Assembly (NCBI RefSeq): GCF_964355755.1
Contig: NC_092670.1
Location: 31,360,388 to 31,424,387 of the forward strand
Source of the DNA: Antedon mediterranea
Taxonomy: Eukaryota > Animalia > Echinodermata
DNA: 64,000 nt
Reading direction: 5' to 3'
Below, in pieces: positions 4,641 to 64,000 of this stretch (positions are counted from its first letter, which is position 1; every line of letters begins with the position of its first letter). The notes under the pieces are model-generated. The model saw only the letters and a program-made list of their open reading frames with translations, was not told the DNA's origin and made no database searches. A program made the translations under genes and the position numbers.

Positions 4641-5505
4641 GGCGCTAGTTCCGTTTCGCACCTGTCATTTATTTCGACTCAACATTTGTTAAGAAACTTT
4701 ATCGTGAGTACCAGACCTTAGAATTAGACCTCAAAAATACTTTTACGAAGGAGATCACACAAAAAGTGACAAATAAATCCTTTAAATTGATGAATTTACA
4801 GACGTGTTTCTCGCACATCAGTTCGTCAATTTCGCATACGCCATGTTCAATGTTGTTGTTTCTATGGAGCGCCAAAAGAGCAATCATAATAGAGGGCTAA
4901 AAACTTAATATAATGCATATATTTAATGCATTTATTGGTGAAAATTATGTTCAATTTTAATATATTTTGTCAATGTCAATGCAACAAAACCCTAGGCCTA
5001 AATCAGCATCACTACCTAGCCTAGGCCTAAGACCAAGAGGAATATTATTTAGATCATTGAGATGTAAAAACTACAGTACATGTAATAATATGACGATGAA
5101 TTTGTCGATTTTCATTCTTAAAAGTTAACGAAAACTGCAAAAACCATGTACAGTATCAACAGTAACATGTGTTGCATTGACATTGACAAAATATATTAAA
5201 ATTGAACGTAATTTTCACCAATAAATGCATTAAATATACGCATTATATTGAGTTTTTAGCCCTCTATTATGATTGCCCTTTTGGCGCTCCATAGAAACAA
5301 CAACATTGAACATGGCGTATGGAACCGATGTGCGAGAAATACCTCTGTAAATTCATCAATTTAAAACATTTATTTGTTACTTTTTGTGCGATCTCCTTCG
5401 TAAAAGTATTCTTGAGGCCTAATTCTAAGGTTTGGTACTCACGATAAAGTTTCTTAACAAATTTTGAGTCGAAATAAATGACAGGTGCGAAACGGAACTA
5501 GCGCC
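4641..5505. mobile_element. Mutator/MULE-like non-autonomous foldback element
   Basis: About 345-bp near-identical TIRs (GGCGCTAGTTCCGTTTCGCACC). Exact 9-bp TSD GGCCTAGGC at 4632-4640 and 5506-5514. Confidence 0.88.
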
Positions 5506-13600: not shown

Positions 13601-16600
13601 TTGATCACTTTATTTCAGAATAAAAATATATATTATACATATTATACAACAAATAATACAAATGGAATTTAGTGAAGAAATTTGAAGATCGTATTAATTT
13701 TGTTATGATAATTAAAATATTATTTCAATTGTCATTGTAATAATCATGTGGATGATGATTAATAATGTTAAACTTAGATAACATGATGATGATGATTTTA
13801 ATTTTTCATTCACTATTTTCAATATTTGGCCAAAATGTAGTAGTAGCATAAAGTAGTGTAAATAGGGAAAAATTATTTGATGTAAAAGAAATAATGTCAC
13901 GTTGAAGAAGATAGATAGAGCAGCACCACTAATAAACAGTAATAAAAGTAATATTTCAAATTTTAATTTAACAAATTAAACTTTTTTTTTGTCTTTTATA
14001 GTGTTGGATACTTTTAATTTATATACTTGGAAAGCGATATCTGTTGCTTCCCCATCAATTTACTACAAATCTAGTTTTTGCACAGGTAAGTTAAAATGGT
14101 CCCAAACTCCTTTATTAATAATCACATTTAAATACAGTCTTTAACATAGTCTAACAAATATACAACAACTTTATTAGTCTTGGTATTTTGGATATACTGT
14201 ACAGCATTTTGTAAAGTATATTTGAACTAGATACAAATTTGATATCACTCACTTTGCATACAAAAAGAGTATTCACACCGATTGGAATATTTATATGAAG
14301 AAAACTAACAATAGAGTTCAACCTGCATAAGCTGACCTTTTTTTACCCACTTGTGTCAATACCCCTAGCCTGTTTGCCGTTTATCTAGAAAAATCGGTTA
14401 GCATAATAGTATCGGCAAACGTTTGTCTGAAATAACAGACAAATAGTTTTAGGGCCTGTTTCTGCTGCAACTGCTCAAAATACGGTATCAAAATACGGTA
14501 TAAAATACGGTATTTTTTATACCGTATTTTTTAGTACCCCGTTTCTGCTAACAATACTTCTTGGGTGGTCGTGTTAAATTTCATCTTTTTTACCCAAATT
14601 GCCATTCATTAATTTGATCGATAATTAAAAGTCGCAATAAAGGAAGTTTTACGTCTCACTTTCAACAGCCTAGCCCTAGTGATAGAGATGTTGTGAGAGC
14701 ACAGAAAACATCGTAATGGGGACAATTAATTCGTTCCCTCCCCGAGTTATTGTATTTTGCAATGTTGTACTGCTTTCGCAGGCTCTTCAGCTTTGAGTTT
14801 ACTTGCTTTGGAGACAAGTTTATTCCATACTCCTGCTTTATTTTTTTAGAAATGTCTTTATAAATGTGGTTGTCCCTTTTATTACCTTTTAGTTGGTCAG
14901 ACATTTTAGTTTCCCCACACACATTTATTTAGTAAAACTGTGACGTCTTTGCTCCACATTTTCGCCGAATATATCTATACATGTGTGTAAAGCAGCTAAC
15001 AGCGACAGAAAATAAAAACACGAATGGTGACCTTTTGTCATGTAAAAAAAAAATACGGTATTTTTTATTGGCAGCAGAAACGGGTACAAAAAATACGGTA
15101 TAAATTTGTAAATACCGTATTTTATCCACAAATTTTGTGGGGAAAATGCGGTATACAAAATACGGTATATTTTTTATGAGCGCAGTTTCTGCTGCCAAAA
15201 ATATACCGTATATATACGGTATTCAAAAAATACCGTATAATATACGGTATTTAGTTGGCAGCAGAAACAGGGCCTTAGTCTAATTGTTAAACTCTTTCTC
15301 ACTATCTTATGCAGCTGTATTCCATATATATTGATAAACACACAGAAGTTATTTATATAACAAGGAAGTAGTCTTTTTATCTGAATATTATAATATCTGT
15401 AGAGTGTTTTATTTGTTTCATAATTTGAATTACATAACTAGTATCTTATCCAAAATTATATATTTATTCAATTTGGAGTCCTTATCTTTGAAAAAAAAGT
15501 AGTGTTTGTTACACTATTAATGCGCAATAGATACATTTTTAGTGTACAAAAATTAAACAATTCGTCAATATCTTGTAGGATTTAAAGTAATAGTCCATTA
15601 TCATCATCATACAGTTAATTACTATGGAAGCAAATTAATACCAAATTCACCATCAATTTCAATATTTAAGGTTGCGCTAACAAAACACTTTGTTTCTTGT
15701 TATGTATAGTTTATTTGTATTTCCAATTGTTTAAATTTCTTGTATACAAGGTTCTCTATATATAAATTATGCTTATTTCAGGAATACAGACACAATGTAA
15801 AATGCACTAACTCCTTGTCTCTTACTCACCCTAGCTGTTTGTTCCATGTGTACCACGACAGTTTAGAAGGCCTATACAATATTGTTTCATATTTCTGTCT
15901 TGGGTTTAAAACAACATTTCTGATATCATCGTTAAATTTTTAACCGCCAGCGGTAAAGATAGTTTCGGGTCATCACTTTGCGACTTCTGGGTTTTTTGCT
16001 GCCTTCTCTAATCTCTAGTATTTTAAAGCTGAAGCTGTTCATGAAGAGATTATTATAATTAAAACTTTCTAATCTGTTACTTTATAGATGTTGATGTGTA
16101 TTGGTTATATCCTAATGATGTCATGGGAAAACTGTGTATATTGGCAACATCTCATTCAACACACTGTGTTCCTTGTGGGTGTCTTCAGCTCTCGGTGCTG
16201 GACAGCAATGGTAGCTGTGTCTCTGTGTATGTTGCGATGCCGTAGTACCTGCTTTGTTCTACAGAACAAGTTCTGGATTTACTTCTATGGATGGGGGTAA
16301 GGAAAGCGTTAGTAAACTAAAGCCTTGTTCGCACTGGACTTGAAATTTAACCATGGTAACTTTAACCAATGACAACAACAAATTTGACTATTGTTCGCAT
16401 CTGGATATTTTCATGCAATTAACCTGGTGAAGGTCATGTGTTAACTTTATTTGCATGTTTGAATTGGACTTTTTAGGCAGCGTGGTTAGTTTTACAGAGA
16501 TCAAGTTCTACTATGCAGTCAGCTGTTGGTAAAAGTTACCATTGGACTTGGTTATTTAACCCTGAGGGAATTGTAGCCAGTGTTCGGATTGGATTTTCCT

Positions 16601-19600
16601 TTGTCATTTTAGCTGGCAACTAGGTTAATTTGTCCAAAGTTCAGTATGGTCAAAGCTTAATTTAACTTTGTTGATGATCTGATTAATGATTTTTTTAGCG
16701 CCATTCTCATTCATGGCACTGTAAAAAAGGATCAGACCAGGTGAGGGACTTCAATGATGAAGAGTGTCTAATATGTAAAGGCAGTTTCAGAGCCTAGGTC
16801 CAACAGATAGATCTCCCAGCTATTTTGGCAGATTCAATCACTTCTCTCCAAAGTTCAAACTGTGGTTGAAAATTACTACATATTTAAAGCATCAAAGGCA
16901 AAAATTCATAAAGTGAATAAAATATATAATAGTATGAATTTAAATAAAAAGGGTATTATTGTGTTTTCTTTTTCAGAGTACCTATGGTTGTAGTTGGAGT
17001 TTTAATTAGTGTCAGTAATTTAAACGATGATATGCTGTCACCTGTGTTTGGTTATGGCAGGTCACAGGTAAACTATAGGATGATGATGATACCTCAAGCT
17101 TGATTCCCACTTAACGCAACATGAGGGCATAACCAATCACGATGTGATGAATCATCTGAACTGCAAATGTGATTGGTCAACTCACTCACCTACATTGTTG
17201 CATCCAAGTGGGAACCACGCTATAGGTGCAAACCAGATTGTGGTCAGAGTATGATCTTGATAATTGTGTGCAATGTTACAATCGCTATTGTAGAAAACAC
17301 CAGCTAATGTTGAAACAACCGTTAATGTAGAACAATCAACTTCTAATGTAGTGAAACCTCCAGTTAATGTAGTTAACAACATCTTATGTAGTAAATACAA
17401 ACTTAGGGAGATTGCCTACGATGTATAGTCATTTTAGAGAGTATGAGATGGTGATGCGTGTGACAGTGGCGTAACAGGCGGGGGGGCAGGGGGGGCGGAA
17501 TACCCCCCTGGCGGATTTTACCGGGTTGAGAAGCGTTCGATCGGGCTGGGTAACAAGTGTAATATAATGTTGCGTTGTTGAGGTACTAATGAAAGACTCT
17601 AACTCGCTTGACTGTCGTAACACTATATTGTTTATTCAGTATAATACTTCAGTACAATATACAACTATAAGTATACATAAGGAACGGACGATCAATGATG
17701 CTGTCAGTGAGGTGTGGTGTGTGTAGGTCTGCTTCTGGAGAAGTGGTTGTAAGGTGTGTCTGGGCCCTTCTGAAACCTGGGGGTATATTGGCTCAGTTCA
17801 TTTGCATAATGTCATTACATCATCTGTGAGGGTAACGATTGGTCCTAAGTTGATCCAGGGGTGTTTAAGTGGGAGTGATTAACGGTGTCATAAGGTATTT
17901 CTGTGATGGATGACACTGTCAAATCTGTACTTAAATAGTGTCGATCACTCCTGGTTTTAACGATGGGAAAGTCACAAAATTAAGCTAAGTGTTTTCTTTA
18001 GGGACTCTATTATAAACTAAATGGTCGTTAAAACATCTGGACAAACTCTCCTTTGGACTTTCTGGGTCAAGTTTGTGAACCTATCTGAATTCCGATACAA
18101 AGGTCAATTTCTTAAATATAAAAGTATATCTTTATATCACATCCCTCTGTTTCCCTTTTTTTTTTCTAATCTATTTAACATATAAAAATGGTTATAATAG
18201 TGGCATGCAAAATTAAAGTTATATAAAAGAAAAAAACATTATTATACATATAAGCAAAAATTGAGTTAGCCAAAACCATTGACTCTGAAGTGTAACCTTA
18301 TCACTTTCACTCTCTCTCTTCTCTCTCTTTAAAAAATGAAATTAAAATTGAATTTGGTATAAAAATTCCGGAATTTATATAAAATTTTAAAACAAAAAAT
18401 GTATATAAAAAAAACAAAAGTGTTCTTCAAGATCGACATAATTGTGGGTCCGTTGCTTTGGAGGCATGCTACACTCGGATTACCGAAATATAAACATCAC
18501 AACGGTTGGGTTTCCCTAAAAAACATCGGTCAAGAAGTCGACTCCCGTTAATTATTTGAAATAGAAAAAAAAATTTTATAAAGGATAAATTGAAATCAAT
18601 CGGTGGGTTTATATAATAATCGATAAAAACGGAATGCACTCCACGGTATGTCCAACATGTAGGTAGTTGTGTAAGGGATCTCATTCAAATATACCATACC
18701 GCAATTCAAGCATTGGTATTTCTTGTTGAGGGATATTTGTTGGCAATTTTTGTGAAAAAATGTTCCGCAGCATTTGTTGATTGTACAGTCAGTATGAAAG
18801 TTTTTAATTTCGGGGTTACATTGACAAATTTGGCAGGGGGTATCTTGGTATTTATTTTCCAGGTACTGCATGTTACGAATGTGCGAATATAGTTTTTTCT
18901 TATATTTAGTTACAACATATCCAAATGGTGAGTGTTCGCTAGGTTTTAATTCGTCTTGGGGTATGATGCCTGTTTGTTGTCGGACTCTTGAAAAAAATGC
19001 TGTGCATTGTGGGGCTTTGATGTCTTTTGTAATTGCTAAGAGCAGGAGGGTCATAGAATAAATATGTTGTCTGTGAAATTCATGTGTGTTTGGTATACAA
19101 GTGGCGATGCCGTCTAGATTAATGGAAAGGTCGATTGTGGAAAAGTCAAGTAGGGCTGGTTCACTCTTATGCTTCCAAATGTAATCTATAATGGGGGAGG
19201 ACATTTTGTCGAAACAACATAAATAACTGCCAATGTGTAAAAGGGTATTTAATTTGAGGTTTGTCAGTTGGTCTGCTGGACGGATGTCGCAAAGGAATAA
19301 TAAAACTCTTTTCAAGGAATCTAAAGTAAATGGCATCGTTTTGGTAATATGGAGAATTACGTTTTGTTCGCTTTGGTAAAGGATTATCTTCTTTATAAGG
19401 GCACATTCTGTGGACAGGGGCGTCATTTGAATTTTGTGTTTTAAGCATAACTGTGTAACGTCAAGCTTTTCGGATTCCATTTTAGGGGGAAATTTGGAAT
19501 TGACTAAAATTACGATAAATAAAATTAAAATGTATTTAAAATAAACAATATTAAACTAAATAAACGATATAAAACTCAAACAATAAAATTTTAAGTTCAA

Positions 19601-22600
19601 CTATTATAACAATCTCACAAAAGTAAATTAACTTATAATTCGACAGTAAATACTGTATATTTGATACGCTCGTGCGACTTATTTATAGTCTGCCCATCCG
19701 GTTGTTTATATATATAGCTCGTAATTGGCTCTACTCCTCCCTCGAGCGTTAATCAAACGTCAATTGGTCAAATTTAAAGAACTTAAAAAATTTAAAAAAA
19801 ATAAAATAAAATACAAAGAAGGGATAGAAGAAAGAAAATATAAGATAAGAATAATATATACGATATATGATATGGCTTCAAATGAGTCACAGTACAGTAT
19901 GATATTCAAGTAAGATGATATGAAATACACAAAATCCTGACTGACAACTCGTGGGAAGACGCACTGCTTATCAGTACATTAACATGCGGTCAGTTGACTG
20001 TGGTTTTTGGCGTCTTTTATCTAAGCCGCCATCGCGGGCATCTCATACACAATTGTGACGCTGTGCGTGTGAGGCCACCTTAAAAAAATACACTCCTACT
20101 AATCGTATGTAACGCGCTAGCGATCAGCAAAATGAACGTACTTTCGTGGCTGGCTGTCACTCCAATACTCAATCTTTCACAGGCATACTAACACAACACT
20201 ACGATTGTTTACTACAGGTCTAGTCAAGCCTTAATAAATTTAATTAATATAAATCGACATAAGAATAATAAAGTATATTTTAACTAAAATATAAAAACCT
20301 AACACTAAATTTACAAGATAAATTCTATTTGATAACTGCTGAACATCGTGGCACAGAGCATAGTTGTTTGCTTGACATAAAAGGGTATTCCCCTACACAG
20401 GTCTCTGCGTGCGTGTGACGTGCCCAGCCAGCTGCTTGATAGTATAGAGAGAAAGCATGCAGCTCACGCAAGTGCAAGGTGCAATGGTTGAGTGAATTCA
20501 GGGATCACCTTAATTCCATGGTTTGTTACCTAAACACCACATGATGGTGAATATGCCTGTTAAAGTCTCAATGATACGATCCCTTAATGTACCATGTTGT
20601 TGTTAGGAGGCTTAAAGGGAGGAGGGATCTAGCCTAGTTTCGGTCGGCAAGAGAATGCCTTCCTCTGACAATTTAAGGTCGGCAATTGAAATTCGTGGGC
20701 TGGAAATTTCACCAAATTATATAGTTCATAAACAAAAGAGTTTAGCCGGAAATGCGATTTGCGGCCATACATAGGCCTATAGAGAAAAAAAAATTCGAGG
20801 GTATGGTTCCACTAAACAATTTAACGATCCACCCCGCCGTCAAACCTGGTTACGGCCCTGTTTCAGTCTTCTAACCGGAAAAATTACTACCTTTGCCAGG
20901 TGCGGATCCAATGTTAGATTGGGTTTTCACATGTTCAAATGTTATGTCACCTGAGTTTTTAACGGTGGAAAATGTACGATCATTTTGCTGATTGCTGTGC
21001 AATAAATGGGAGTGTTATTTCCAGGCCAACTACTACTAGTTAGGCGCCATTTATCATGAATTTTATGTGCGAGAGTACCATTTCCGACGATCTAGGGGTG
21101 TCATTTACCAAAATTCGCTTCGCCACAGCCCCCACCATGGGGGGGCTGTGGCTCAAGGATTTTCCCCTCTTTGCCCCCGCCTGACAAGACCCCCTTGTTA
21201 CGCGGCTGGCGTGTGATGAAATGGCCACTTTTTGAAAGTCGGTAGCTTGTGATAGGTGGATAGGAGTGTTGACAAAGTGCGAGGCAGCGAGGCATGCCAA
21301 ATATTTGTGCGAGGCATCATTTTATCATTTCCAAAAGTCCGAGGCATGCGAGGCATATAGTTTACAATTTCAAAAAGGTGCGAGGCATATCTTAACATGC
21401 TATTATGATATATTATAGGCCTAATAATCAATCGATACAAGCGTATCTAAATAGATTCGTGTATACACTCATCATGTTGTTTATTTTTATGTAACGATTG
21501 TTTTTTCATTCAAGTCATATCGTGTCAAATTTTACTTTTACAAAAGTGCCCAAACTACGGTTCAAAAATCTGAACGACAGTCTTCAACTTTCGATAAACA
21601 ATAATTGTTATAGCGACACACTCATCAAATGATTGCAATGTTTGTTGGCATTTTGAGCGTGTTCACTCACATGTCTCTCGAACATAGCAGAGTGAAAATA
21701 ATATTTTGTCACACCACTGCGCCTAGATCCGGTAGACCCGAGAGATGGACAATCCCTCTTTACTATTTAGCAGGTAGCGGAATGATTCAGCCCTCAGCTC
21801 AGAGGATTGTGGTGCATTCCCCTCCTATAGCACGTGGTTTCAGCAGCAACGCACAGACTTCTCTCTGAGCGGCGTGCCAAAGACATTTTTGACATTCCAT
21901 TCTCTAGGAACAACACGTGTACCTCTCTCGCAAATAAGGTGAACAGCGATTGCCAGGACAAGTTCAATAACTGGCGGTGAATAAAAGGTAACTGATATGC
22001 CGATCCAATAACATGCCGCAAAGAAAAAAATTGCGACAGAATTCTGGAGCGCGTGTGAAAAAAGACTTACGTTCGACAATTGTAATACTAGGCCTAAAAT
22101 TAAACTTTAGCTAATATGCTTAGCCCTAACCTAGATAAGAGGCCTATGTAGAAAATAATTTAATCAATTTTGATAAAATAATAATTGGTGTAATATTTAA
22201 TAATGATACACTATTCCTGTTTTAGTAAGCTAGGTATATTACGAACGATTTTTATTTATTGTTGTCCATGTACGTACTAATAAACCTGGCGCTAGTTTCC
22301 TTCGCTTGTATTTTTACTCCAAATTTGATAACTAACTTTATCGTGTGAATACCACACCTTAGCAGTATACCTCATGAGTACTTTAATGAAAGAATCACAT
22401 AAAAAGTAACAAATAAATCCTTAAATTAATGATTTTACAGGCGTGTTTCTCGCACACTGTTCGCGAATTTCACTTATTCAATGTTCAATATTTTTGTTTC
22501 TATGGAGCGCCAAAAGAGCAACGATAATAGAGGACTAAAACTCAGTGGAATGCGTCAATTTCTCATGCATTTATTGGTGAAAAACACGTTTTATTTCAAT

Positions 22601-25600
22601 ATATTTGTTAATTTGTCAATAAAAATGTTGTAATATGTTACTGCTGATACTGTTCTGTTTTCAAAGAATAATAATCGATCCTAAATCAACATCACTACCT
22701 AGTCTAGACCTAGGACATCCTACTAAGGATATTATGATGAATTTTTCTATTTTATTCTTTAAAAGGTTAACGAAACCGTGTACATTATCAACAGTAACAT
22801 TTTTCCTTACTGACAGTGACAAAATCTATTGAAATTGTACTTGATTTTCACCAAATAATGCGTTAAATATAAATGGATTCCACAGAGTTTTTAGCCCTCT
22901 AATTAATTTTGCTCTTTTGGCGTTCCATAGAAACCAAAATATTGAACATTGAGTGTGCGAAATGCGAGAAAAACAACGTCTGTAAAATCACCAATTTAAT
23001 GGATTTATTGTTACTTTTATGTGATTTTTCTTCATTAAAGTAGGCCTACTAATTCTAAGCTGTGGTATTCAGGATAAAGCCTTGGTTAAATTACAAGGCA
23101 GGTGCAAAAGGAAACTAGCCTAGCGGGCCTAGGCCTAGGCTACTTCAATTTCGGTGATTTCCTGCCTTGCAATTTTGAGAAATGATAAAATGATGCCTCG
23201 CATTTTTTGATGATGGTAAAACGATGCCTCGCATAAATTTCTGACTTGCCTCGCATGCCTTCCCTGCCTCGCGTGCCTCGCTGCCTCGCACTTTGTTACT
23301 ACCCGGTGGATAGACTGATAGCTAACAAATTTAGACATAGGTTTTGTAAAATATATAACATTTTCTACTTTTGCTGGCAATAGTAACTGCATTAACTGTT
23401 GACCGTTCTACATTAGCTGGTGTTGATTTTTATTTACTACATAATCTGTAGTGTTTCCAGTGGCGTATCCCCCCCCCCCCCCTGATTTTGTGTCAGTCGG
23501 CACATCATCGCGTCCGTCAGCAAATAAAGGTGCCGGGGAAAAAAATTAAGTTAGGAAAATAAGAATAAACTATTATTCTGACAATAATTGAGAACTGTAA
23601 ACATAATTCTTTTGAGTGTTTGTTTATTTACATATCATATCATTCCCTTCAGATCAACTATTTTTTATTTTCATTACATCTAACCAAACACGTAAAAAAT
23701 GTGGTTAAAATATCTTATCATCTACAGTAGCATCTATACGGCCGTACGCACTAGATTGTTTACTCAAAAGTCTTTGAACGGACCGGTGACCTTACCATAT
23801 TCAACCTTGTTTTTTTTGTATGTCTTCCTACGCTAAGATTATATATTTCCACATGCCATGTGCTTTTTTGTCTAAGATATATTTATTATAAGTGCCAAAA
23901 ACCCAATTTTTTTCTCGATATGAGGCCTTCATTATTCAAAATTTTTAAAGAAAAAGCACACATACCATAAAAAATATCCATGTATTTCATTTTTGGAACA
24001 GAATATTCCGTGAGGCTCAACTACAAAACCACCATTTTGTGATATGATGTCATCGTAAGCCAATCAAAACTGAGCTTTCTCGCGATTGGCATTGCTCACG
24101 GTTGAATGATTTTGGATTCTAGCTGATTTGATTGGTGGATGCGAATCACCCGCAGCGGAATGTTTTCTCTCGCGCGTGTACCATGAATCTCTCTGATCGT
24201 TACTACACAAAGTTAGAGCAATGAATTTGCCCGAATTCTGTTAATTCTGGTAAACAACTTTATATATTTTATAAGCATTTAATAACATGTTTTATTGATA
24301 TTTCCAATGGTGATATATAGAATAAATTACTAAAAAACGTAATTATATGTAATTATTTTAACCAAAAATGGCGTAGTTAATAGAATTGTCGACTGAGGCC
24401 GCGATGTTTTAGACCCTATATTTCGAAAACTACAAGTCAGATTTTCCTAATTCTTTCTTTATACTAACAGATAATGTTGGTTTGGTTTTAATTTTGCAGC
24501 GTTATCCCTATAAGACAACATGACTCATGACTATGCAATCCTAGAACATATATTGATCAGGTATATGTACAGATAATGACAATAATTTTGTCGGCAAAGT
24601 TGCAAATTCCCGTCCCCCTCCCAACTTCAAAATCCTGAATATGCCACTGAGTGTTTCTACATAAGCTGGAGGTTTTACTACATTAGCGATGGATTGTTCT
24701 ACATTAACGATTGTTCAGACATTAGCGGTTTTAACATGCAGGCATTAAAATCTATCAAAAATAATAATAATACAGTGTTTAAATGAAAAGAAATTTCACT
24801 GAAGAAATTATTTTGAATACTTTTTTGTTTTAATACAGTTAATAACATCATCAGTGTTTTTGATACTGAATATTGCGCTGACGATTATCCCGTTGGTGGT
24901 GCTACAACGACGTGATAGATTCCAACATTCTAAATATGAAGAACTACGTGGCGAGTCATATGTGCGAAATCCTGAATCAGATAATTTACTTGAGTCTTCA
25001 GAAGATGAAGGTACTTATACTTGTTGTTTTGTAAAGCTCTTTTTACAATATAAAACTAAATTGACAAAAATATGGTAATGATATGATATCATCATGTCCA
25101 TATATGGGTACATCACATTTTTTTGTCTCATACAGTTTAATAGTGTAGACAGAGCTTAAGAGGCATTACCTAAAAATGTAAATATTATTATTATAATAAA
25201 AATAATAATGATTAAAGCTGAAATAATTTGAACCCATTGCAGCCAGCAAAGATAGCACACAAGAAGTCTATTCTCTATACTATAACCATTGATGGCTGTA
25301 TAAGGTTGAATCTACAGTATCTTATTTTTCAGCTTCCATTCATTGATCCTTTAAAGTAATAAATAAGACACATGTAATCTTTTAGATGATAGTGATTCAA
25401 GTCAAGAAAAGATCACCAGTTCATACCAAACAAAAGGAGTCATTGACATAGAAGATATTGGCAAAGACCACAAAAAGAACCTGAATATCCAGATGTGTTC
25501 AGGGGCTACGCAATGCTCACCACAACAACGGGATCAATGCCGTAGTATCTTGCAAAAGCGAAAAAGATACTGGCAACACCTTAACCTATTCATGAGCATG

Positions 25601-36772: not shown

Positions 36773-39700
36773 GTAAGTAATTTCAAAATGTCCATAGATT
36801 TGTTGAATAATAATAATACTTGATTTGTTATCCAAGTGTACAGTAGGCCTAGGCTATGTATTGTCGGTTGAGGAATGTCAAGTTTATGTTATGCAAAATG
36901 TGCAATTTAAGGGTTTATTTGCCCAATGATAAAATTCAGTATTTTGTATTAAAATGCTGTGTAAATTGTAGATCATCAGCAATTCAATAAATTCTACTAC
37001 AAATAGAAATATTTTATAATAATAGTAATACTATATAATATGTGTACTGTATATGAATGTGGTTATTCATTCAATGAAACAAATAGTTTAGGGTGTTTAG
37101 TGGAGGTTTATTCCCTCTAAGAGAACTGAAAGTTTGTTTGACCTATCTTTTCTTTTTGAATAGTAGTACTTATTGACACTATTCTTTAGTTTGCTGTTAA
37201 CTGGTTTTGGGGAAAGTACATCCCGAATTCCGCCTTAATAAATTCCATTTGAGATTGTCATATCGTTGTGAACAGAAGAACAGGCGCTGTTTGGTGGCAG
37301 CACTCGACACGAAGGGACCCTTACAGTAGGAGAGTTCAAAGTTGTGTCGCCCACACCTGTGCACAATTCAGTCCAGTAGGCTGCAAGTCGCAGGTTATTC
37401 CCCCATTTACATTTATTTACATAAACTTCAGTGTCCCTCTTGAGTCCTTCGGCACAGTGAAATAAGCACTGAAGTCAATAAGTGCCACATTAAAATATCT
37501 ACAAATTAGATTAGTATTCAGGCATTTATTTGTTCTATCAGATAACTGTTATGGAGTAGCTTCATGTACTGTATATATGTCCTTTATCAGCAGTTTCAAT
37601 ATCATTGTGCAAATAAGCATCCCATAAACATGATAGTGCCTATCCTTTTTATGGATACCTATCCTATTAGTAATAAAAAGTGTATGCTTCTATATTGTAC
37701 TTGTAATCGTGTCTGAATTATTGAAATGAGAATTTTAATATAAAAATGTTAGTGATACACTTTAAAGACAAGAAAATATGTAAAGCTCTATTAAAAAATC
37801 TATGACAATAAGAAAGAATTTAGAGCCCACTATATACTAATTCGCTACAGTAGACTTTATATAATTTGCACATCTAACCAAGGTAACTTTACTAAAGGCC
37901 ATCGGTAAATTTGACCATTTTGGTCGAGCTTCGATAACTTACCGGTTAGTTTTACCATGGCTTTAGCAACATTTACAACCATGACATTAAAACTACAATT
38001 AAACGTGTAAAGAAGATTATGAATTTCATGAGTTTTCCCAAGTCTCGCTCAATCGGATTGAAATTTTTAGCCAGCATGGTTATTTTGTACCGAGATTATG
38101 GTACTGTCAGTTCTACTGGGCAGGCAGTGGTCAGTAAAGGTAACCATTGGTCTTGGTTAATTTAACTCTGAGGGTTGGTAAACAGCATTCGGATTAGACT
38201 TTTCTTGGTCAATTTAGCTAGCAACTCGGTTCATTTGACCATATTAATTCCAGTGTAAATGTGGCTTTAGAGAGCATACTTTAACATGTTATGGCATATA
38301 TAATTGCTTTGAATTTTATTTGTCCGATATTTGTCATAGACACATTTAAAACATAATAATAATTGGTTGATACTTACACAGATGTGTAGATGTCTCTAAT
38401 TTGAATTATATCTGAATATCTAATAACTGAACAAATCACCTAAATAATAAAGTTATCACCTACAGTATACCCCTTAAATAGTATAAATATAACTTATTAC
38501 ACCCATGGTGCTACTGTATACAAATATTAACCTGTAGAAATTCCCAATCCAATTCAATAAACACTACACAGTAAGTGTTCTACTATTTATATTGATGTCA
38601 AATTGTGCATGACATTCTGAAATCATTTTCTAACTTCTCTTCTATAGTTCAGTGACCCTTATTTCAAAATTGTTTATCTATATTTTTATTCCCTTGCTTG
38701 TGGTAACATTATTATAAATCCAGCATTTATTGACTAACGTTTCTATAAAGTATTATTATATAATTTACACAGAACTAGATTTACCACCACAAGTAGAGTC
38801 TTCAAATTTAATCAATTTGTTATTGTGTAATGACCTGTTTGTAAAAATTCTTTCATTATATTATATTGCAGCAAATCTTAGGTTAACAGTAGATATAAAA
38901 TCACTCGTTAAATTGCCTACACATGATTTTTATACTGTAACTTTTGTATTCATAAAGTAAGTAAATATTGATTGTACAGTTTTCAAAGCAATTAAAGTAT
39001 TTATAATATAGAACGTGACCTATCCCTTTGAATTTAATTGTTCTGGGGCAGCCCCAGGATCTAACCAGTGAGCTTTCAGAGGTGTGTCTAGTTGACTGCG
39101 GCCCACATTTCCAAAAGATGAACAAATTGGAAAAAGGAAATATTTCCTCATGTTCCTTTTTTCGTCTCCACCTTTTTGTACGGGATCGGATGCTTAATTG
39201 GACTGATACAAATTTGGTAGAGAACATGTATGCCACCATAGTGGGGAAAAACACAACTGTCACTTTTTTTCCTTTTATTGCAAGGACTTTCAGGAAATAG
39301 GACTGACATTTCAAGTTTTTTACTCGGGGTACCTGAGTATAGTACTCTCTAATCTTCTCCTCTTCTTCTTCCATCTGAACACTATTGAGTAAAAAGTGCA
39401 ATTTATAAAGTGCTACTCCTCCCTTATTCGTTGTAGTATTGAGCTCGGATTTAGCATGAATATACTACAGGGACATTTCCTCAAATCTATAGAGCCGGAT
39501 TTTTAAATTTCAAACCGGATGCAGCCATATGATGTCTCGAAGATGGTACCGTATAGCCTTATTTGGTAGCGAGATTATTGTGTATGTGACGTCACATCCG
39601 GTCTTATGACGTCATTACAGCTTCTTTTGGTGTACCTCGAGTATCGCACATTCGTGCTTGTTAATCACTTAATTTTATGGATGATCACTTTTTAGTATTA

Positions 39701-45700: not shown

Positions 45701-48700
45701 CAATCAGGATGAGGTAATAACAACTGTAGGATGTGTTTGTAATAGTTAAATTTACAATCATTTAGGTTTGATCTCAACCAATGTTTTATATGTACAGTAG
45801 CATGTTTTCTAATGAATTGATAGTTTACATTCAGATTTGATCATGATCAACTTACTCATAATGTTGTGTAGATAGACGTGCTTTAGGGTTATATTCCAAT
45901 TTGATCATGATCAACTTAATCATGATTTTGTGTAGATAGATGTATTAGTTTTTACTTATATTCTGATTTGATCATGATAAATTTACTCATGATGTTGTGT
46001 AGATGTATTAGGTTTATATTCAGATTTTATCATGATCCGATAAACTTACTCATGATGTTGTGTAGATAGATGTACTGTATTAGGTTTATATTCAGATTTT
46101 ATCATGATAAACTTACTCATGATGTTGTGTAGATAGATGTACTGTATTAGCTTTATATTCAGATTTGATCATGATAAACTTACTCATGATGTTGTGTAGA
46201 TAGATGTACTGTATTAGGTTTATATTCAGATTTTATCATGATAAACTTACTCATGATGTTGTGTAGATAGTATGTAGGTTTATATTTCATATTTGATCAT
46301 GATCAACTTACTCATGATGTTGTGTAGATAGTATGTAGGTTTATATTTCATATTTGATCATGATCAACTTACTCATGATAATGTGTAAATAGATATGTAT
46401 TACTGTAGGTTTATATTTAGATTTGATCATAATCAATGATATGAACCTATGTAGCAGTGTTGACCATGTATAGTACTGTACTTAACAGTGCTAAAAATGT
46501 GAATAAAACCAAGCGATGATACACCACACAGTAGCGAAATGGTAGAATAGTGGATGATATAAAAGATCTCAACACTGAATAGAATTATGTGGATTAAAAC
46601 TCTGTAATTAGTGTTGATTTCAGAAGAATAATGTACTATAAAGGGATTAGGACTATGAATAGATTCCTTGGGAATACCGGAAGCTGAACCCATCATGACG
46701 AATCTTAGTTATAAAAGAACTACGGTATTGTACTTTGTGAATGGTTTTAGTTTAGTTCAAACAACGTATCAAAATATCCAACATGAACAATTGGTTTAAA
46801 ACCTGGTGAAGTATGTGATCTGTACTAAATGCAATACATTATCAACAAATTTCAAACCATTTAAATGAATTTCAAATAGTAATCTTAACTGGATTTTTTC
46901 AGGACCATGATCTATTGTGATCAAGATATGTATTGTGCTTTTTCTATGTTTACTACAACCATGGAGAAATAAGTTGTTATTACTATTTCTATAACACATG
47001 GTTACATAGTGGGGTCCTTAATTATGAGTGTACCTGTAAAACAGATAAACGTGGATTTTTAGATACAGTAGGACCTGTATTAACAGGACAACACTAAAAA
47101 AATAGTACCTACTGTTGTCAGAATAGGGATTGAGCCCTAGTGCCACTCATTCATTTTACATGAAAGTGTCCCCTTACTAAGGGTATGTTCAAACTCACGG
47201 AGTTACGGTGGAGTTATCTACTCAAGGCGTACGGTAATCCGTGGCGTTAAAAGCCAAGGTGTTCAGACACAACGACCAACATTCCAATGCCTTGCGTTTA
47301 AAACACTCTGATATATGTATAAATTCATGACAATGCATGAAAGTTAACATCGTTTACATTGTTTTTTGTTTTTTTCTATTTATATAATGTTTACCTTCAA
47401 ATATACTGATTTGTTCTTACTACTTGTAGAATAGAATTGCATTTTAATTCAAAATAATTTAAAACGTAATTGTTACACGGACAATTATCTGATTAATTGA
47501 TTTAATTTATAAAAATATCATATCACTGATGCCAACTTTACTGTAAAAATTTAAAAAAAAACTTTAAAATCTGAACCTGAAAATACATTTGACATGGCTA
47601 TTTCGCTGTCGTATCATAGGGTACGGGTATGTTGTTGCTGTCTGCTAATCGTGGTCGTGTATTTTCATTGGTTAAGGCTAAAATCACTGATGCATCACTG
47701 GATTAGCGTTATGAAATCTACCCTCTCCCGCTAGAGTTGTTAACGCCACTGGCGCGGAGTAACAGCTCCCTAACGCTAAAGCGGCATGGTTCAGACACAA
47801 AAATATGTACGCCACTTACATAACTCCACCGTAACTTTGTGAGTCTGAACATACCCTTAAATAAGGGGTTCTACTGTGGATGAATTGTAAGAGGAATGGA
47901 AGAGGAATGGAAGAAAAATGTTTAATATGACTGGGGTAATAATGTTCTGCGCATTGAGAGCTTGCTTATATGCGCTATATAAGAATGAACTATTATTATT
48001 ATTATTATTATTCTAAAAACTATGTTTGCATTCAGTATACGGTAGTTAATTTAAATAAAATAGGTTTTCTTTTCCGAAAAACAGAGCTAAATTTAAGATT
48101 TAGAAATCATAACTTCCTTCTGTGTTGTGAGAAAATCTGATTGCACATTTATCTAAATGATCTATTATGACCTATCGTCAGACCTATGATTTTTAAATAG
48201 AAGGGCCTATAGATTGTAAAATGAAGGGCTAAATTTAACCTAATAAACTTATGATATTTTCTAGATCTTACTAGGCCTGTAGTTTTGCCTTCAATGTAAT
48301 CTCTCTTGAGATAATAACAAGCATAATGTAAAAATAAGTCTGTGAGAAAATGTAAGTAATTCTCAAGTATTTTAAAAAAAACTAGAAAAAAAAACCTTTG
48401 ATTGAAACATTCCCACTGGCAAATGACTAGAAATGTTGCTGAGAGGGATACACAAGTATAGATGGAATGTGACAAAAACTAGATAAGCTGCTTGTGGATG
48501 ATTTGATTGTAAGATTCCATAAGCCTGAGCCTTATGACAGATGATTGGGTGATAACTCCTAGTCCAGGGTCAATCATTTCTATCATCACCATCTGTAGAT
48601 GTACCACTATCATCACCTGTATTAGCAATGTCAAGGAAATATTCATAAATTACCTAATTTTTATTGTTAAAATGTGTTGCTCTGATTTATTAACCTAATT

Positions 48701-62764: not shown

Positions 62765-63575
62765 TACTTACACATATTTAGGCCTACTTACACATATTTA
62801 GGCCTACTTACACATATTTAGGCCTACTTACACATATTAGGCCTACTTACACATATTTAGGCCTACTTACACAATTATTTAGGCCTACTTACACATATTT
62901 AGGCCTACTTACACATATTTAGGCCTACTTAAACATATTTAGGCCTATACTTACACATTTTTACTTACACATATTTAGGCCTACTTATACATATTTAGGC
63001 CTACTTACACATATTAGGCCTACTTACACATATTTAGGCCTACTTACACAATTATTTAGGCCTACTTACACATATTTAGGCCTACTTACACAATCATATT
63101 TAGGCCTACTTAAACATATTTAGGCCTACTTACACATTTTTACTTACACATATTTAGGCCCACTTATACATATTTAGGCCCACTTACACATATTTAGGCC
63201 TACTTACACATATTTAGGCCCACTTACACATATTTAGGCCCACTTACACATATTTAGGCCCACTTACACATATTTAGGCCTACTTATACATATTTAGGCC
63301 CACTTACACATATTTAGGCCCACTTACACATATTTAGGCCTACTTACACATATTTAGGCCTACTTACACATATTTAGGCCCACTTACACATATTTAGGCC
63401 TACTTACACATATTTACTTACACATATTTAGGCCTACTTAAACATATTTACTTACACATATTTACTTACACATATTTAGGCCTACTTACACATATTTAGG
63501 CCTACTTACACATATTTAGGCCTACTTACACATATTTACTTTTTACACATATTTACTTACACATATTTACTTACA
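62765..63575. repeat. Minisatellite, 20-bp unit, about 40 copies
   Basis: TAGGCC(T)ACTTACACATATT repeated with no unique spacers. Confidence 0.95.
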
Positions 63576-64000
63576 CAGCACGCAATTTTACTACAATATT
63601 ATCTATTCAAATTGGCAGTACAGTAGAATGTAAATCATTTTAATAGATTAAAATTCTTTTTTCATTTAACATCAATTTAAATAAGAAAAAAATGGTAAAC
63701 TGGCGTACATCCTATAACTTGTATAAAAATCCCCTATTTTATTTTACTGTATCTATAATAATAATACTATATTGTTATTTTAAGTTTGTGTTAAATACTT
63801 CCTTTATCTTATGGTGTGTTACTTATTGTGTGGTTATATTGTGTGGTTACATTGGTGGGAGTTTCCATATATTTTAAATGATTGGTCACAAAAGAAAGGA
63901 ATAAATTGAAGATGAGAAAGATAATAGGTAGTCATTCGCTGCATCCTCCCACACACATGTCCAACGTGAAGTAAAACGTCAGAACCGATCAACCACACAA

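Follow-up and report, generated by a model that had tools for sequence, protein, structure and literature searches.

Cut-and-paste transposons of animals are usually described as a transposase plus ends. The hAT transposons are given, in the passages of PMC3942097 that deal with them (also PMC1131882), as elements of 2.5-5 kb with terminal inverted repeats (TIRs) of 10-25 bp and an 8-bp target site duplication (TSD). The element described here, found in a 64,000-nt stretch of DNA from the crinoid Antedon mediterranea (the window, whose positions are used throughout), resembles the non-autonomous hATs and MITEs of those passages in its 3.7 kb size, its short TIRs and its 8-bp TSD (PMC3942097, PMC1131882), and, like hAT MITE derivatives, it has ends at far higher sequencing depth than its interior. 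It differs from hAT transposons in that it has no transposase and carries an intact, unrelated gene. A second comparison is offered by sea urchin and lancelet, where RAG1 N-terminal-like RING proteins have been tied to transposons (PMC1131882). As portrayed in the relevant part of that paper, these proteins are about 300 aa long, recently duplicated in an echinoderm and of suspected transposon origin, and our open reading frame (ORF) is similar; however, the motifs given there, H-x3-L-x3-C-R-x-C-G and D-x3-I-h-P-x2-F-C-x2-C, are absent from the ORF, which has no sequence match to them (PMC1131882). Among the papers listed by literature searches none described such an element, which may be catalogued in Repbase or Dfam, both outside those searches. 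We put at roughly one half the probability of our main reading, namely that a non-autonomous DNA transposon carries the ORF as its cargo, an orphan gene with a RING-like product whose function we infer.

The element and its host intron

The host gene of the window is GPR155/LYCHOS, complete at 10307-31524 in 13 exon blocks on the plus strand. At its first exon it matches a protein with the label Antedon mediterranea at 100% identity, and the next-ranked matches are from echinoderms, apart from one that bears no species name. Intron 7 of this gene is a nest of inverted-repeat elements, in which no RNA family was found, and it is here that the element lies.

17068..24838, plus strand: intron 7 of GPR155/LYCHOS, which contains the element (from exon mapping)
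17464..21208, unstranded: hAT-like non-autonomous element of 3,745 bp, which carries the ORF
17464..17478, plus strand: left TIR, starting CAG, an imperfect repeat with 12/15 matches to the right end
21194..21208, minus strand: right TIR, ending CTG, from the same end screen
17456..17463, plus strand: left copy of the TSD, GCGTGTGA, 8 bp, exact
21209..21216, plus strand: right copy of the TSD, GCGTGTGA, 8 bp, exact and identical to the left

The element is defined by its ends, by the TSD, by a contig that joins 17463 to 21235 and by the failure to find a transposase family. In a screen for CAG...CTG termini with TIR and TSD, the real window yielded 2 units, versus 1 in 30 shuffled windows together. 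The joining contig comes from X5, one of the public sequencing runs considered below, and its intervening letters match the right flank after one copy of the TSD; this is an empty site, with a short side of only 21 letters and with flanks that are themselves repeats. The gene had been called element-encoded in the sequence-only reading that preceded this work, and the TIRs, the 8-bp TSD, the repeat depth and the empty-site contig bear this out. As to class, the 8-bp TSD and the short TIRs, within the 10-25 bp range, are those of a hAT, and the transposase that a hAT would have is missing from the element. No transposase family was detected in the 76 stop-free frames (42+ codons) across intron 7, nor in the ORF, and for this reason the element is non-autonomous at best and its class has to be taken from its ends alone. 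To judge from these it quite probably belongs to the hAT class, with P-type and other superfamilies that have an 8-bp TSD as further candidates; the ends are presumably Tip100-like (a hAT subfamily). The end motif was absent from the metagenome contigs searched.

The surroundings are themselves repetitive. Intron 7 also holds a second CAG...CTG element at 23458-24649 (1,192 bp, TIR match 11/15, 8-bp TSD AGTGTTTC), which has no long ORF, and a palindromic MITE at 22309-23079, of which a 72% similar copy stands at 4670-5476. Outer inverted repeats at 17303-24726 (70 nt, 84%) and 21272-23296 (26 nt, 96%) surround the element and its neighbours, and these are layered insertions within one intron. 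Host intron 5 contains an element at 14453-15273 that is bounded by GGGCCTGTTTCTGCTGC and includes, at 14662-14922, a Myb/SANT fragment (PF13837, E 1e-12); by its look we take it to be PIF/Harbinger-like. Minisatellites are present at 45823-46430 (67 bp unit) and at 62765-63577 (20/14 bp units).

An orphan gene within the element

The 3.7-kb element has a single long gene, the ORF, which runs antisense to GPR155/LYCHOS within intron 7.

18596..19480, minus strand: the ORF, an intronless orphan cargo gene of 294 aa, for which homologue searches were empty
19681..19716, minus strand: pair of TATA-like boxes, 200-240 nt ahead of the ATG, by consensus match only
17631..17636, minus strand: possible poly(A) signal near the left end of the element, which has no other AATAAA/ATTAAA hexamer past the stop

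The frame of 294 codons is a real one. It lies in a stop-free frame of 319 codons, and no other in the window, which is AT-rich animal DNA, is as long; 30 shuffled windows reach 105-167. The strings quoted in the sequence-only reading were located in it (ECALIKKII at residues 25-33, FTLDSLKRVLLFLC at 51-64, LNTLLHIGSYLCC at 77-89 and MSSPIIDYI at 93-101). The ESM Atlas recognition value of the protein is 2979 against a mark of 2300, a value that is no proof that a gene is real. As consensus matches only, the TATA-like boxes and the lone poly(A) hexamer would fit one transcription unit inside the element. Upstream of the ATG lies a T-rich stretch, 19505-19650, whose closing TTTTAG is 24 nt from the start codon; it is a possible intron of the 5' untranslated region. 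The window has another minus-strand ORF, at 38901-39401 (166 aa), without a significant Pfam match.

In the protein searches made, the gene is an orphan, which for the 5.8-billion set means that no homologue was found at near length (0/289 candidates) or longer (0/746). A membrane protein of 2,683 aa was the sole match among 1.84 billion representatives; the match covered 31 residues, fell on Cys/Thr repeats and was set aside as compositional. Viral contigs, metagenome contigs, NCBIfam and the ESM Atlas yielded no relative, and sequence searches of Pfam and the PDB found no homologue; a PDB sequence match to SspA/GST at E 0.025 was rejected.

The putative C-terminal zinc finger

18701..18835, minus strand: zinc-finger motif, residues 216-260, with putative ligands C216, C219, C237, C238, H243, C246, C257 and C260 in RING-like spacing

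A C4HC3-type pattern had been noted at the C-terminus, with some residues said to favour PHD and a short spacing said to fit a RING variant as well. The pattern is present at 216-260 and recurs in 0/20,000 shuffles, having been written with the sequence in view; a cross-brace finger is likely, and RING is a better fit than PHD in Pfam, in the PDB and in a viral spacing set. In Pfam the finger has one match, to zf-RING_2, which covers profile positions 3-43 of 44 with E 0.37 and 11.5 bits versus a curated cut-off of 27.3, and the sole RING/PHD-type chain among 10 matches in a PDB sequence search is a RING-H2 (E 0.4). For the spacing set, viral contigs were scanned for the arrangement of the query, CC-x3-FH-x2-C-x10-C-x2-C, which gave 80 loci; 42 of these had an in-frame upstream C-x2-C, one of low complexity was dropped, and 38 were distinct. 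All of the 16 same-spacing proteins chosen from the 38 and scanned are Pfam RINGs and 0 are PHDs, in a set of viral contigs where RINGs are probably common and PHDs scarce.

These results weigh on the rival proposal of a PHD finger, one that would read the tails of histone H3 and either steer the element in chromatin or shield it there. The C4HC3 count would suit a PHD, and C232 is an alternative ligand able to act as ligand 3. In PHDs a Tyr generally stands two residues ahead of ligand 7 and no Pro follows that ligand, and the finger agrees with both. However, no PHD family appears in Pfam at E up to 10, where zf-RING_2 does, and none among the 10 PDB matches, in searches whose HMMER filters drop weak ones; with the RING-only spacing set also against it, we regard a PHD reader as quite improbable.

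The same-spacing proteins are the 'CC' RINGs of giant viruses (38 distinct from IMG/VR; Pfam zf-RING_2), and they share with the ORF the arrangement C-x2-C-x11-23-CC-x4-H-x2-C-x10-C-x2-C. The eight Cys/His ligands of the query stand in this RING spacing, with a gap of 17 in the range of 11-23, and the Ile before ligand 2 (38/38 in the viral set) is kept. In contrast, the query has Leu for the Pro after ligand 7 (38/38), Gly for the Arg/Lys after ligand 8 (35/38) and Ser for the helix Trp (22/38); it has no similarity to the viral proteins past the ligands, and it carries a long helical N-terminal part. The comparison gave no evidence of viral origin. Among the E2-contact residues and the linchpin Arg, the Ile is all that is kept. 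When shuffling leaves the ligands in place, the query is equalled on our own RING profile by 275 of 2,000 shuffles, and so the argument for a RING comes from the spacing alone. The finger region is unfolded in a single-sequence model (pLDDT under 50), and a model of the homodimer with zinc (score 0.00) was set aside. In its spacing, then, the predicted finger is RING-like, and it appears atypical at the E2 surface; it probably has the RING cross-brace fold.

For RINGs, PMC6487577 and PMC10760634 describe the linchpin and the hydrophobic contact with the E2, and according to the second of these the PHF7 RING is active with Asn at the linchpin, so that a missing linchpin Arg does not preclude activity (PMC10760634). 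Ligase activity is nonetheless doubtful, because the Pro, the Trp and the linchpin Arg are all missing; an active E3 is predicted only tentatively, as a somewhat unlikely outcome, and for the same reason a RING that serves as a decoy, or whose catalysis is weak, is just as probable.

The N-terminal region

19133..19480, minus strand: N-terminal region, residues 1-116, with six predicted helices in a structure model, not shown to be BTB/Skp1

The ORF shares by eye a pattern of three amphipathic helices with the BTB/POZ, Skp1 and Elongin C adaptors, whereas it has no significant profile or fold match to them and no predicted strand. The claim that residues 20-104 are BTB/Skp1-like fared no better than chance. 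Pfam searches of the whole protein and of pieces returned no BTB or Skp1 family, and on our own profiles, built from 13 viral BTB and 10 viral Skp1 sequences after 12 phage loci had been dropped as chance motif matches, residues 1-115 scored 1.9 bits on the BTB profile, which 397 of 2,000 shuffles equalled, and 0.6 bits on the Skp1 profile, which 258 of 2,000 equalled. Among the controls, 13/13 true BTBs scored 5.6-14.3 on the Skp1 profile and 4/10 true Skp1s scored <1 bit on the BTB profile, in a test that is only partly sensitive and with profiles that are narrow. AlphaFold2 without an alignment models residues 1-116 as six helices and no strand (pLDDT 62, pTM 0.56). Fold searches with this model found nothing significant, the best rows being helical bundles with Z of 7 or under; no BTB chain stood among the best 50 rows of the VIA fold search, and the ESM Atlas gave no usable match. 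A separate candidate, residues 99-121 as a hAT dimerisation motif, which we take them to resemble by eye, was rejected with no Pfam match.

One inference of the sequence-only reading was a compact cullin-ligase hijacker, in which a RING would be joined to a degenerate BTB/Skp1 domain, and that idea depends on the BTB/Skp1 domain. Residues 51-64 and 77-93 do align by eye with the last BTB helices, hhalign sets 51-64 on the last-helix region of viral BTBs (probability 0.2%), and a SKP1/BTB row stood at rank 6 of one fold search (E 1.2, TM 0.14, not significant); the narrowness of the profiles also speaks for leniency. Set against the empty Pfam search, profile scores at the level of shuffles, a strandless model and the want of an Atlas match, these points leave a fusion of this kind quite unlikely. 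Because the tests are of limited sensitivity, a BTB/Skp1 domain at the N-terminus is best called unsupported rather than excluded.

Copies in public sequencing runs

Part of the stretch is present in 16 public runs, and contigs from 4 of them were compared. ORF pieces are found in three organisms (A, B and C): in one the gene is a repeat with nearly identical copies, and the two others have diverged copies. A single contig of run X1 spans 18678-19781 with a depth of 449, and a flanking single-copy contig (neighbouring exon) has a depth of 19.5, a ratio of 23; this shows the gene as a homogeneous repeat of roughly tens of copies, contig depth being no true copy number. The sub-terminal parts of the element reach about 60 times the depth of the ORF, as either MITE derivatives or nested repeats would. 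Run X5, guessed to be RNA, was rejected as evidence of expression, its depth profile being proportional to that of X1 (61 vs 61, 52 vs 57). It did supply the longest ORF-only piece (737 nt, gap-free), and run X6, from organism B, supplied one of 477 nt with 20 differences (~4%), also gap-free. Another contig of organism B, with 43 differences in ~300 nt (14%) and 4 gap letters inside the ORF, is probably a decayed copy. Copies also vary beyond the gene:

20175..20860, unstranded: 686-bp stretch missing from part of the copies, with the joint 20174-20861 seen in 3/4 runs

This stretch is a later insertion or deletion. Within the ORF, 6/13 differences are synonymous, 0 introduce stops and 0 fall at the zinc ligands; the 13 rows were drawn from the 40 difference rows shown, with 248 further rows of the table not included. 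Against an expected synonymous share of 20-30%, the excess has P 0.03-0.16 on these 13 rows, which suggests, short of showing, selection on the ORF.

The copies also bear on the alternative that the gene is a neutral passenger, a captured viral or host RING remnant that is of no use to the element and whose frame is open merely because the family is young. X1 shows the near-identity of copies that this account would have, with 6 differences in 1.1 kb, and the account gains as well from the missing E2-binding residues, from a synonymous excess that is not clearly significant and from the one diverged copy with gaps. Against this, the piece from organism B is gap-free at ~4% divergence and the eight candidate ligands are all intact; the TATA-like boxes and the lone hexamer frame the gene inside the element, and protein, viral and metagenome searches found no donor gene. 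On balance, we consider a passenger unlikely.

Discussion

We return to the reading that we prefer, in which the transposon is non-autonomous and the ORF is its cargo, an orphan gene for a RING-like protein. A transposase encoded elsewhere would move the element, and the gene would be transcribed from its own promoter within it. The predicted helical N-terminal part might bind a host protein, for example a silencing factor, and the finger might recruit an E2 weakly or pair with a host RING; the product would then be a ubiquitin-system adaptor for the element and could blunt silencing of it. Judged by its sequence, the gene product would probably act on the host ubiquitin tagging system, and the odds somewhat favour a gene that is expressed and kept by selection. 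A bolder proposal, which we rate as a long shot, is that a crinoid hAT-type family without a transposase keeps its one orphan gene under selection. The gene would encode a ubiquitin ligase complete in itself, which may be a BTB/Skp1-RING fusion that has diverged strongly, and the ligase would destroy a silencing factor of the host or act on it as a decoy; an animal cut-and-paste element would then carry a counter-defence gene in the style of a virus.

Both non-autonomous hATs and the capture of genes by transposons are already familiar, and if the gene is a passenger, the locus is a case of ordinary gene capture by a transposon. Otherwise, an element that seems to have spread recently, has no transposase and retains its RING-like orphan gene intact in related organisms would carry a candidate for counter-silencing or host-manipulating cargo.
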